Assembly (NCBI GenBank): GCA_048941015.1
Contig: JBHLNZ010000077.1
Location: forward strand, 1-13,433
From: Promethearchaeota archaeon
GTDB taxonomy: Archaea > Asgardarchaeota > Lokiarchaeia > Sigyniarchaeales > SOKP01
Length of the DNA stretch: 13,433 nt
Direction of reading: 5' to 3'
Under the pieces are notes generated by a model. That model was not told where the DNA came from. It worked only from the letters and a program-made list of their open reading frames with translations, and did no database searches. Both the position numbers and the translations under genes were made by a program. Shown piece by piece: positions 7,695-11,335 of the stretch. Each line of letters starts with the position of its first letter. The first letter of the stretch is position 1.

Positions 7695-8431
7695 AAGTTA
7701 ATAATTTAAATTTTAGTTATAATTCAACTTTTCAGATTAAAAACATGTCATTACATGTTGAAGAGAATTCCGTCTATGCTCTAACAGGAAATAACGGATC
7801 AGGTAAAACTACGCTATTAAGACTTTTAGTAGGATTATTGAAGCCAAACTCAGGACAAATTAAAGTATTCAATGAACTACTCACTCGAAATAAAAAACAA
7901 TTATGGAGAATTAGACAGAAAATAGGATTTTTATTTCAAAATCCAGATGATCAACTTTTTGCTCCAACTATTGAAGAAGATATAGCATTCGGGGCAAGAA
8001 ATCTGAAGTTTAATGAAAATGAAGTAAAAAGTAGATTGATGTGGGCTTTAAATGCTGTAGATTTAACCGAATTTAAACATTTTTCTCCATTTGACCTTTC
8101 ATGGGGTCAGAAGAAGAGAGCTGCTTTAGCTGGTTTATTAGTAATGAAACCAAAATTATTAATTTTGGATGAACCTTTCGCTAATCTGGATTTTAAATCG
8201 ATATACAATCATCTAGAAATCTTTGAAAAATTAAGAAAGGAAAATAATATGACTATATTATTTACAACTCATAATATCTTTTTTGTAGAAAATTGGGCAC
8301 ATAGGATGCTTTTTCTTCATAACGGTGAAAAAATATATGAAGGATCTCCTAAAGAAGGACTGAAGAATCCACTTGTTATGAATTTAGTTGGATCCTATAA
8401 TGACTTTTTAGATTTATTAAATAAATCTTAA
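7679..8431 (+). CDS. ECF transporter ATPase (NikO/CbiO family); true start probably ATT/CTG at 7679-7687 rather than ATG 7745
   Basis: GNNGSGKTT, FQNPDDQLF, LSWGQKKR and LDEP motifs. The in-frame upstream extension IILAVEVNNLNFSY is the usual first strand of ABC ATPases. SD AAGGAGGT at 7665-7672. Confidence 0.92.
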   Translation: MILAVEVNNLNFSYNSTFQIKNMSLHVEENSVYALTGNNGSGKTTLLRLLVGLLKPNSGQIKVFNELLTRNKKQLWRIRQKIGFLFQNPDDQLFAPTIEEDIAFGARNLKFNENEVKSRLMWALNAVDLTEFKHFSPFDLSWGQKKRAALAGLLVMKPKLLILDEPFANLDFKSIYNHLEIFEKLRKENNMTILFTTHNIFFVENWAHRMLFLHNGEKIYEGSPKEGLKNPLVMNLVGSYNDFLDLLNKS

Positions 8432-8512
8432 AATGAAAATCTATAAATATAAATTAGACAAAATAATGATTAAATTTTTTAGCTTAATGATTTTATTATA
8501 ATTTGGGAAATA

Positions 8513-8589
8513 ATGATGGAAATTTAGCATTCTCGAGGGCACATATGATAACAAATGATTATGTGTGCAAAATAATGCAGACATCCTGA
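8513..8589 (+). ncRNA. H/ACA guide RNA hairpin 1 nested within a box C/D K-turn; predicted 23S Psi2496 guide
   Basis: Lower stem GCATT 8527-8531/AATGC 8574-8578. Pocket CTCGAGG/GCAAAAT. Upper stem GCACATA/TATGTGT, then U.U and tandem GA.GA K-loop. ACA at 8581-8583, exactly 14 nt from the upper stem. Flanked by ATGATGG(A) 8513-8520 and (TC)CTGA 8584-8589. Confidence 0.8.
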
Positions 8590-8610
8590 ATTTAATAATC
8601 AAAAAATCCA

Positions 8611-8690
8611 CTACCCATAAAATGGGCTCTTGACTAAGCAATGGTATCTTCCACTGCAATGAAGTATGAGTCAGTACCCTTGGGCAGAAA
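8611..8690 (+). ncRNA. Candidate H/ACA-like hairpin 2 with a non-standard K-turn
   Basis: Lower stem CTACCCA/TGGGCAG, pocket TAAAATG/AGTACCCT, upper stem GGCTC/GAGTC. K-turn-like ACT-AA-[GCAATGG/CCACTGC]-AAT-GA-AGT. ANA-type AAA lies 15 nt from the upper stem. Confidence 0.5.
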
Positions 8691-8723
8691 TGATTATTTA
8701 CCCATAAAAGCATAGAAATTAAC

Positions 8724-8802
8724 GCCTAACACGAGAGAACTTTTTTGATATTTATGGTAAATCCTTGATATGATAAAAAAGTGTTAGTGTTTTTAGGCAA
8801 CA
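8724..8802 (+). ncRNA. Candidate H/ACA hairpin 3
   Basis: Lower stem GCCTAA 8724-8729/TTAGGC 8793-8798, followed by A-ACA (8800-8802). Upper stem ACTTTTTT/AAAAAAGT capped by a TGA...TGAT tandem GA motif. Confidence 0.6.
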
Positions 8803-8848
8803 ATATATGCCAAATAAAGAAAGATTCTATTATACTACAGAAAATATA

Positions 8849-10070: not shown

Positions 10071-11039
10071 TTATTCCTTTTTTTTTAATTTAATTCCGAG
10101 GTCTAAATTTTCAATTAATTCGGAGAAGCGATTTCTAACTGTCACTTCTGTAACTTGACTTATTTTAGCAATTTTTCTTTGTGTTCTTCTCTCTTTTGTA
10201 AGTAAAGAAGCAGCATAAATTGCTGCTGCACAAACTCCTGTTGGACCTCTTCCAGAAGTTAAACCCCTATCTTCAGCCATTTTAATAACTTTTTTTGCCA
10301 TTTTATGGCATTCAGGAGACAATTCTAATTCGGAAATAAATCTTGTTAAAAAATCTAGTGGTTTTGTAGGATTCAGGTTTAGGAGTAATTCCTTGGAAAT
10401 GAAGCGAAATGAACGTCCTATTTCTTTTTTATTTACTCGTGCAACTTCTGCAATTTCGTTAAGAGTCCTTGGAACTTTATACATTCTACATGCTGCATAA
10501 AGACTAGCCGCAGCAACCCCTTCAATTGATCTTCCTCTAATTAAATGGGCCTCAACCGCGTCCCTATAAATTTTTGCTGAACACTCCCTTAAATTTTTTT
10601 GGAGATCTAAATTAGAAGCCATGCGATCTAATTCACTAAGAGCAAATGTTAAATTTCTTTCAGTAGCATCTGAAACTCTAATTCTGCTCTGCCATTTTCT
10701 TAATCGATATATTTGACCCCTTAATTTCGCGGGTATCTCTTTTCCAAATATATCTCGATTTTTCCAATCAATCATTGTACTTAATCCTTTATCATGAATC
10801 ATATAAGTCATTGGAGCACCCGTTCTTGTTCTTTTTTTCTTCTGATCAGCATCAAATGCACGCCATTCAGGACCGTGGTCAATATGATTTTCGGAATGAA
10901 CTAAACCACATTCCTCACAAACCAATAATCCTCTATTTTCATCATGTAATATACTTTTACCGCATTCGGTACAGATATTACTCTCCAAATTTCGCTTCTC
11001 TTTAATGATGGTTTTAGTTTCATTCCAGCTCGAAATCAT
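10071..11039 (-). CDS. tfb: Transcription initiation factor IIB
   Basis: Zn ribbon CTEC...CEECG, B-reader [17 protein letters not shown], and two cyclin repeats ([23 protein letters not shown]). Confidence 0.98.
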
Positions 11040-11086: not shown

Positions 11087-11335
11087 TTATTTCATTTTAG
11101 CATATAATTTTAAGTTTGAGTCAATTTGAATTTTAGATATGTTTTTTATAGAGATAAAAGGAAATTTTACGGGACCAAAAATCTCTTTAATATATCCAAT
11201 TTCTTTATATTCTTCTGTAAATACTGATTTGTTAAGGATTTTTTCTAGGTTTTTATTCCATCTTTTGGCTCTAAATATTTCATGCTTTTTTGATTCCCCG
11301 AGATAGAAAAAATCTAACTTAACCCAATTTAACAA
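11087..11335 (-). CDS. gar1: H/ACA RNP component Gar1/Naf1
   Basis: IGYIKEIFGPVKFPFISIK matches the Gar1 motif G(K/x)VxDxFGPVxxPY. Sits directly upstream of tfb, the conserved archaeal arrangement. Confidence 0.88.
   Translation of the reverse strand: MLNWVKLDFFYLGESKKHEIFRAKRWNKNLEKILNKSVFTEEYKEIGYIKEIFGPVKFPFISIKNISKIQIDSNLKLYAKMK

Follow-up and report, generated by a model that had tools for sequence, protein, structure and literature searches.

Archaeal H/ACA small RNAs (sRNAs) carry one to three hairpins and have been described in Euryarchaeota (PMC7991803, PMC11077068)—the searchable literature yielded no described H/ACA sRNAs from Asgard archaea, and no archaeal composite RNAs that combine box C/D and H/ACA elements. 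Here we examine a locus from a Promethearchaeota archaeon of the Lokiarchaeia (GenBank assembly GCA_048941015.1, contig JBHLNZ010000077.1). The window, by which we mean the whole stretch of DNA that was analysed, is 13,433 nucleotides (nt) long; its forward strand carries a candidate sRNA of about 305 nt, at about 8505–8810, that would be transcribed from its own promoter (Table 1). An original prediction, made from the letters of the window, placed the first hairpin inside a box C/D kink-turn (K-turn) and proposed a composite RNA guiding both pseudouridylation and 2′-O-methylation; the nesting of the hairpin in a K-turn stands, and the dual guide function does not. We consider it probable that the locus encodes a three-hairpin H/ACA guide sRNA whose basal K-turn acts as a hinge or clamp bound by L7Ae, rather than as a methylation guide.

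Table 1. Features of the candidate H/ACA sRNA and its putative promoter, in window coordinates.
Feature	Position	Strand	Remarks
Putative promoter, TATA-like box AAATTTTTTA	8472–8481	+	T/A-rich TTTTTTA or TTTATAA in homologues
Whole three-hairpin H/ACA-type sRNA	8505–8810	+	5′ end probably G8505; 3′ end just past 8810, uncertain
K-turn C-stem, 5′ strand AAAU	8508–8511	+	pairs with AUUU 8590–8593
K-turn 3-nt bulge L1–L3, AAU	8512–8514	+	NAU, GAU or AAU in homologues
Bulged-strand G.A/A.G dinucleotide (GA of "box C")	8515–8516	+	opposite G8588–A8589
3b position, U	8517	+	opposite 3n, U8587
K-turn NC stem, 5′ strand GGA	8518–8520	+	pairs with UCC 8584–8586
H/ACA hairpin 1	8527–8578	+	P1 8527–8531/8574–8578, pocket, P2 8540–8545/8560–8565; RNAalifold and manual structure
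5′ pocket guide block UCGAGG	8533–8538	+	would pair with 23S CCUCGA
Hairpin 1 kink-loop (K-loop), U.U/G.A/A.G	8546–8548/8557–8559	+	G.A in 45/51, A.G in 47/51
3′ pocket guide block GCAA	8567–8570	+	would pair with 23S UUGC
Proposed 9-nt "D guide" GCAGACAUC	8577–8585	+	P1 (GC), 2 variable nt, ACA box, NC stem (UC)
ACA box of hairpin 1	8581–8583	+	internal loop between P1 and K-turn NC stem
Non-bulged K-turn strand	8584–8593	+	UCC (NC), U (3n), GA, AUUU (C-stem)
Outer helix P0-2, 5′ strand AUAAUCA	8595–8601	+	pairs with UGAUUAU 8691–8697; encloses hairpin 2 and its ANA box
H/ACA-type hairpin 2	8611–8690	+	G.A/A.A variant K-turn; ANA box 8688–8690
Outer helix P0-3, 5′ strand GCAUA	8710–8714	+	pairs with UAUGC 8806–8810; encloses hairpin 3 and its ACA
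H/ACA-type hairpin 3	8724–8802	+	P1 8724–8729/8793–8798; ACA 8800–8802

A conserved kink-turn at the base of hairpin 1

Homologues of the region were found in 19 genomes of the same genus, with 74–77% identity across about 340 nt. A covariance model built from hairpin 1 and its flanking strands was used to scan the genomes of the family; 119 of the 131, from 13 genera, each have exactly one match over the full length, and one additional match lies in a sister family. The K-turn counts below come from 51 aligned sequences of 14 genera, a chosen sample out of 121 matches. This alignment was fitted to the covariance model, which favours the structure; an alignment of 20 sequences made with MAFFT alone gives an agreeing pattern.

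The K-turn is formed by strands 8508–8520 and 8584–8593, and the motifs named in the original prediction are present at the positions it gave: AUGAUGGA at 8513–8520, UCCUGA at 8584–8589, and AAAU at 8508–8511 facing AUUU at 8590–8593. The canonical (C) stem is 93.9% paired, and all four of its pairs have changed on both sides—compensated variants include CAAC/GUUG in one genus, UUGAU/AUCAA in homologue L083, and AAUC/GAUU in the sister family. The non-canonical (NC) stem is 99.3% paired, with the variants GGA/UCC, AGA/UCU, and GAA/UUC; its 4b:4n pair is G-C in 37 sequences, G.U in 10, and A-U in 4, and the covariation count of the stem gives pairs of GC 35, GU 10, AU 4 and of GC 46, AU 2, GU 1. 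Taken together, six of the seven pairs in the two stems have changed on both sides, and slid controls are 21–64% paired.

The 1b.1n pair is G.A in all 51 sequences and 2b.2n is A.G in 49 (A.A in the other 2), while -1b:-1n is C-G in 30, U.G in 11, and U-A in 10, with a mismatch in none; one sister-family sequence has a 4-nt bulge. The 3b.3n position is hypervariable (UU 13, AU 6, CA 6, UG 6, AA 5, UA 4, and the rarer CC 3, AC 3, CG 2, CU 2, GC 1), with U at 3n in 21 sequences, A in 15, G in 8, and C in 7. Both the sequence pattern and the covariation of the two helices are those of a standard kink-turn. On this comparative evidence the basal motif is a true, conserved kink-turn that clamps hairpin 1, far beyond what chance would produce; the proposed nesting of hairpin 1 between C-like and D-like K-turn strands is thus borne out across the 51 sequences.

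A structure lacking the K-turn deserves consideration at this point, in which UCC would pair with the 5′-terminal GGGA or GGA, the GA dinucleotides being kept for some other reason, or in which the leader would not be part of the RNA. The minimum-free-energy fold of 8500–8600 does pair UUUGGGA with UCCUGAA, and a TATA-like run at 8491–8501 could in principle start transcription near 8525. The upstream AAUUU, however, is not conserved, and the 5′ end of L083, GUAUUG, cannot form the GGGA/UCCU helix, yet the C-stem of this homologue is compensated. Covariation of the C-stem requires the K-turn register, and both GA dinucleotides are essentially invariant; we regard a structure without the K-turn as very improbable.

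The NC stem directly abuts the ACA box of hairpin 1. Here 8521–8526 lies opposite 8579–8583 in a near-symmetric 5 × 5 internal loop, and we note that most homologues have ANA-like letters (AACA, AAUA, AGUA) in the strand opposite the ACA box too. A crude descriptor scan of the genome for further H/ACA hairpins with a basal K-turn returned hairpin 1 and one match that looks coding; its background is high (269 matches against 160 in the control), which makes it weak evidence for uniqueness.

Extent of the RNA

In nearly all 51 homologues a T/A-rich box ends about 22–24 nt 5′ of a conserved TT/GGGA, and archaeal promoter geometry suggests that this box is the promoter of the sRNA gene. The covariation of the C-stem implies that its 5′ strand belongs to the RNA; with the spacing of the box, this two-strand covariation makes it very probable that the RNA starts 5′ of the K-turn, as had been supposed. 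A second TATA-like run, TTTTATTATAA, lies at 8491–8501, about 25–30 nt 5′ of hairpin 1; its position varies across the family, and as an alternative promoter it would leave out the 5′ strand of the K-turn.

The manual structure of the whole RNA is 95.4% paired in 20 sequences, with 15 pairs changed on both sides, and slid controls reach 32–42%; the signatures of all three hairpins are kept across the family. At the 3′ end, at least 15 of the 51 homologues (about a third), L005 among them, have CUGA directly 3′ of helix P0-3, followed by a U-run. The equivalent positions in the window (8811–8814) read CCAA, and the CUGA may be due to chance or form part of a terminator. A terminal C/D pairing between the 5′ box and this 3′-terminal CUGA was tried and rejected: the CUGA occurs only in that third and the window lacks it, and when the strands were paired by hand on the basis of the alignments, Watson–Crick pairing failed past the G-C pair, leaving no good K-turn.

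Hairpin 1 and its predicted target

Both stems of hairpin 1 are well supported—P1 is 96% paired and P2 99%, with compensatory changes, including four of the six P2 pairs. The pocket blocks UCGAGG and GCAA are invariant in 20 of 20 same-genus sequences and in nearly all family sequences. Archaeal H/ACA RNAs place the ACA box 14–16 nt from the top of the pocket (PMC11077068), and the distance in hairpin 1, from the end of P2 (8565) to A8581, falls inside this range at 15 nt; the box, found at 8581–8583 as originally predicted, is ACA or rarely AUA in homologues.

The pocket blocks were defined by conservation alone, and each lies one nucleotide from P2; in this geometry they predict a target of the form 5′-UUGC-N-N-CCUCGA-3′. 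The pattern has exactly one match in the 16S and 23S ribosomal RNA (rRNA) of two same-genus genomes, where 0.0026 would be expected. The organism's own 23S fragment contains it as well, with UU in the gap, and UUGC-UU-CCUCGA is the best consistent target in 20 of 20 homologues. Hairpin 1 would then guide pseudouridylation of a U in the peptidyl-transferase region of 23S rRNA. We take this target to lie at about E. coli position 2496, counted back from the universal GAUGU motif, and presumably it corresponds to yeast 25S Psi2865, guided by snR46. That snR46 is a guide for the peptidyl-transferase centre (PTC) is confirmed by PMC1766470, which bears on that point alone. A loose sliding search for H/ACA targets scored shuffled pocket strands equally well; only the fixed-geometry test of hairpin 1 is significant.

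The proposed box C/D reading of the basal K-turn

In the original prediction, a basal C/D core would recruit Nop5–fibrillarin in alternation with Cbf5, and the 9 nt before box D, GCAGACAUC at 8577–8585, would pair with 23S 2502–2510 and direct methylation of U2506. The components it relied on exist: the window reads AUGAUGG for box C and CUGA for box D, with the U.U and G-C pairs between them; the 8-of-9 match to GAUGUCGGC is real in this organism, whose 23S fragment contains CCUCGAUGUCGGCUC; and genes for Nop5 and fibrillarin are present. What fails is conservation. The GACAUC segment, whose conservation had been set beforehand as a test, is not kept in homologues, and the sixth base from the D box, before the ACA, must be G for 23S pairing and is G in only 4 of 20 same-genus sequences. 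Contiguous pairing to GAUGUCGGC never exceeds 6 nt among the 51 sequences (5 nt in 25, 6 nt in 11, 3 nt or fewer in 15), and total pairing is 7/9 in 30, 8/9 in 9, and 9/9 in none; in nine genomes a 1-nt deletion shifts the register, and 2/9 pairing is left.

Two further considerations account for the match itself. By our own arithmetic, chance would give some 0.5 matches of 8/9 in the roughly 4.9 kb of rRNA. In addition, P1, the ACA box, and the NC stem explain all of the matching bases—a 9-mer built from these elements accounts for the 7/9 baseline and for the adjacency to the pocket target. Judged from the alignments, the 23S complementarity of the proposed guide is a by-product of constrained elements plus chance.

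The boxes fare no better outside the genus. Archaeal C/D K-turns strongly favour U:U at 3b:3n, and their G:C at 4b:4n is highly conserved (PMC5689011); the basal K-turn departs from both preferences, with U.U in 13 of 51 sequences and G:C in 37. About a third of the sequences have CUGA as the D tetramer; the others have CAGA, CCGA, CGGA, UGGA, UUGA, UAGA, CUAA, or CGAA. The D-like strand lies inside the RNA, with about 220 nt between it and the 3′ end, and no internal C′/D′ pair with spacers of about 12 nt was found in the RNA, the only internal K-loop being that of the H/ACA upper stem. The spacers between the C-like and D-like strands and this K-loop are about 25 nt and mostly base-paired to each other, and the proposed guide is itself largely base-paired.

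Two C/D sRNA candidates from the same genome served as internal controls (G000:C64:63537-63624, plus strand, and G000:C64:3767-3854, minus strand). Both are conserved family-wide, with boxes invariant in 30 of 30 genomes each; the first keeps UGAUGA and CUGA, and the second has the non-consensus boxes AUGAAA (C) and UUGA (D). Their guides (UGUCGCCCCAA; UUAUAGUUACU) are 11–12 nt long, directed at rRNA, and near-invariant in those 30 genomes. The terminal stems covary, and D′/C′ flanks a covarying hairpin, giving a K-turn rather than a K-loop. Regular-expression scans of the genome for canonical C-D′-C′-D sRNAs gave 0–1 matches; because the controls carry a hairpin between D′ and C′, standard scans of this kind return nothing here. 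The lineage thus fixes C/D positions where a C/D ribonucleoprotein (RNP) is expected and varies them in the basal K-turn, which means that this motif is not behaving as a box C/D. With the guide and the C/D-specific positions both variable, the proposed Cbf5/fibrillarin switch on the PTC strand finds no comparative support, and a true composite guide is, in our judgement, extremely improbable. Most likely this is an H/ACA RNA of an unusual kind rather than one with two functions.

A C/D core that guides nothing is a further rival reading. Here the K-turn would bind L7Ae and Nop5, perhaps with fibrillarin, as a cap that protects, stabilises, or co-localises the RNA, with no methylation. Such a core is most plausible in the genus, which reads UGAUGG/CUGA: the letters of the window and of 17 of 20 same-genus sequences fit the C/D consensus well (AUGAUGG/CUGA), and the succession of C, strand, K-loop (UGA...UGAU), strand, and D mimics C-D′-C′-D. 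There is also a functional parallel in the composite small Cajal body-specific RNA (scaRNA) U85, in which the C/D core helps a large inserted RNA to be processed and to remain metabolically stable (PMC4041459). However, the positions that distinguish C/D K-turns (3b.3n, and C or U at 4n) vary across the family while the RNA stays single-copy and conserved, which leaves a guide-less core unlikely. Spacing also tells against it: canonical archaeal C/D sRNAs have about 12 nt, and the two K-turns here are much further apart.

Hairpins 2 and 3 and the outer helices

Each ACA/ANA box of the RNA is enclosed by an extra outer helix—the K-turn for hairpin 1, P0-2 for hairpin 2, and P0-3 for hairpin 3. 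In archaeal H/ACA guide sRNAs the ACA is expected in a single-stranded hinge or tail; the boxes here lie instead in internal loops, closed by outer helices that covariation supports. P0-2 is 92% paired in 20 sequences, with compensated AUAAUU/AAUUAU in L091 and GCC..GGC in L092, and a single nucleotide, A8594, separates it from the C-stem of the K-turn. In L017 a U-A pair of P0-3 has become A-U by compensatory change, and both strands of this helix are gone together in L014, L015, and L019; family variants are GCGUGC/GCACGC, GAGCAU/AUGCUC, and CGCAUAG/CUAUGCG. Two other assignments for this region were rejected. A C′-like AUGAUUA after hairpin 2 is actually the 3′ strand of P0-2, and a small hairpin, AUGCC/GGCAU at 8691–8714, has mismatches in L001, L012, and L018, lies in a segment deleted in three homologues, and competes with P0-2 and the covarying P0-3.

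Hairpins 2 and 3 both have a lower stem, a large internal pocket, and an upper stem, the stems being paired with compensatory changes, and the box stands about 16 nt from the upper stem. The ANA box of hairpin 2 reads AAA in the window and AUA or ACA in homologues; hairpin 3 has the invariant strands CACGAGAGAAC (8730–8740) and GUUAGUG (8783–8789). The pocket strands are strongly conserved, and genome-wide and rRNA pattern searches gave no convincing target for either hairpin—the best rRNA match of hairpin 3, 23S UAGC[UG]GUUCUC, is not significant. As a separate observation, CACGAGAGAAC resembles the sense, not the antisense, sequence of the 23S sarcin–ricin loop region (ACGAGAGGAAC in same-genus 23S); this likeness may be coincidence or mimicry.

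A possible role for the basal kink-turn

If the RNA is a three-hairpin H/ACA guide, an extra copy of L7Ae may occupy the basal K-turn, which would join the 5′ end with the strand that follows the ACA. As a clamp, the K-turn could stabilise the short 5-bp P1 and the ACA box for the PUA domain of Cbf5. As a structured hinge, it may have a further effect; with the C-stem helix one nucleotide from P0-2, the bend of the K-turn would point hairpin 1 away from hairpin 2, so that bulky RNP modules could lie side by side.

L7Ae generally binds archaeal K-turns (PMC5539422), and ion-driven folding of a K-turn is prevented by Watson–Crick pairs at 3b.3n (PMC4382518). The 3b.3n position of the basal K-turn varies freely, Watson–Crick and other combinations included, which argues for folding driven by protein. 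Both points speak against a protein-independent tertiary element—that is, a K-turn that would fold in Mg2+ alone, or bind some other protein, without L7Ae. The prevalence of C:G at -1b:-1n (30 of 51) is a feature favouring ion-induced folding (PMC5689011), and we still consider such an element decidedly unlikely.

Several points weigh against this reading of an H/ACA guide with a hinge or clamp. In the window and most of the genus the letters fit a box C (AUGAUGG) and a box D (CUGA) well, and these canonical letters make Nop5–fibrillarin binding possible there. The C-stem has only four A/U-rich pairs, and two genomes replace A.G by A.A at 2b.2n. We found no described precedent in the literature for a basal K-turn beside an ACA box. 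Hairpins 2 and 3 are without convincing targets, the loose search doing no better than shuffled guides, and that they act as guides is supposed only from their shape.

A bolder possibility, which we think quite improbable, is that one sRNA joins both modification machineries, or that L7Ae bound to the K-turn replaces the single-stranded hinge of eukaryotic H/ACA RNAs. Joined machineries would place L7Ae and Nop5–fibrillarin on a guide-less or weakly guiding C/D core and Cbf5 modules on the three hairpins; if true, the RNA would be an archaeal forerunner of the eukaryotic composite scaRNAs.

Locus and modification machinery

The sRNA region is a 417-nt gap between open reading frames (ORFs) ending at 8431 and 8849. 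No Rfam family matches it at gathering thresholds; the sole match, snoZ122 (C/D-type), was dismissed as chance level at 18.5 bits and E = 6. The genome (3.59 Mb, 29% G+C) encodes a profilin, which is not present in 14 control prokaryotes and fits a Lokiarchaeia-type Asgard lineage, as well as fibrillarin, Nop5, Cbf5 (TruB_N), Nop10, and two L7Ae-family proteins, with Gar1 and TFB encoded inside the window. The small Gar1-like ORF, at 11087–11335 on the minus strand, scores 28.3 bits against Pfam Gar1, slightly below the cut-off; it lies 2.3 kb from the sRNA gene and adjoins TFB (10071–11039), a possible functional clustering. The organism's own 23S rRNA is divided between contig ends (C10, positions 1–1432, and the last ~1 kb of C58). 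Its 16S rRNA was not found in the assembly, and 16S targets were therefore assessed on same-genus genomes.

Significance and comparison with known systems

Among prokaryotes, Asgard archaea are the closest relatives of eukaryotes; the locus adds a predicted family of H/ACA guide RNAs for them and points to a specific pseudouridine predicted within the peptidyl-transferase region of 23S rRNA. Its architecture, with ACA boxes inside outer helices of which one is a K-turn, is undescribed for H/ACA RNAs. If L7Ae binds the basal K-turn, the RNP stoichiometry and spatial layout of multi-hairpin H/ACA particles would depart from the textbook picture, and the arrangement may bear on the origin of the eukaryotic hairpin-hinge-hairpin layout and of composite scaRNAs. 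C/D-like letters around a K-turn can also mislead motif-based annotation.

The candidate shares with described archaeal H/ACA sRNAs a lower stem, a two-part pocket, an upper stem that includes a K-turn or a K-loop, plus an ACA/ANA box 14–16 nt away; it also has three units per transcript, and the genome carries Cbf5, Nop10, Gar1, and L7Ae genes. It differs from them in that its ACA/ANA boxes are enclosed by outer helices, the first a K-turn, and in that its host is an Asgard archaeon. The likeness to U85 is that the strands flanking an H/ACA unit, C-like on the 5′ side and D-like on the 3′ side, form a K-turn. U85, however, has complete C/D′/C′/D boxes, conserved methylation guides, and a whole two-hairpin H/ACA domain inserted (PMC4041459), whereas the present RNA has only one of its three hairpins nested in this way, lacks a conserved guide, and varies at the positions specific to C/D.

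With archaeal C/D sRNAs the basal motif has in common the C-stem, the 3-nt bulge, the G.A/A.G pairs, and the NC stem, together with the AUGAUGG/CUGA letters of the genus; in contrast to them, 3n is variable and there is no guide, while the controls from the same genome keep UGAUGA and CUGA (or UUGA). The L7Ae-binding K-turns of the Kt-7 type (PMC5061560, PMC5689011) offer another close comparison—they too have the standard motif, with C:G predominating at -1b:-1n and 3b.3n free to vary. What sets the basal K-turn apart from these is its new context, immediately 3′ of an ACA box and at the base of an H/ACA hairpin.

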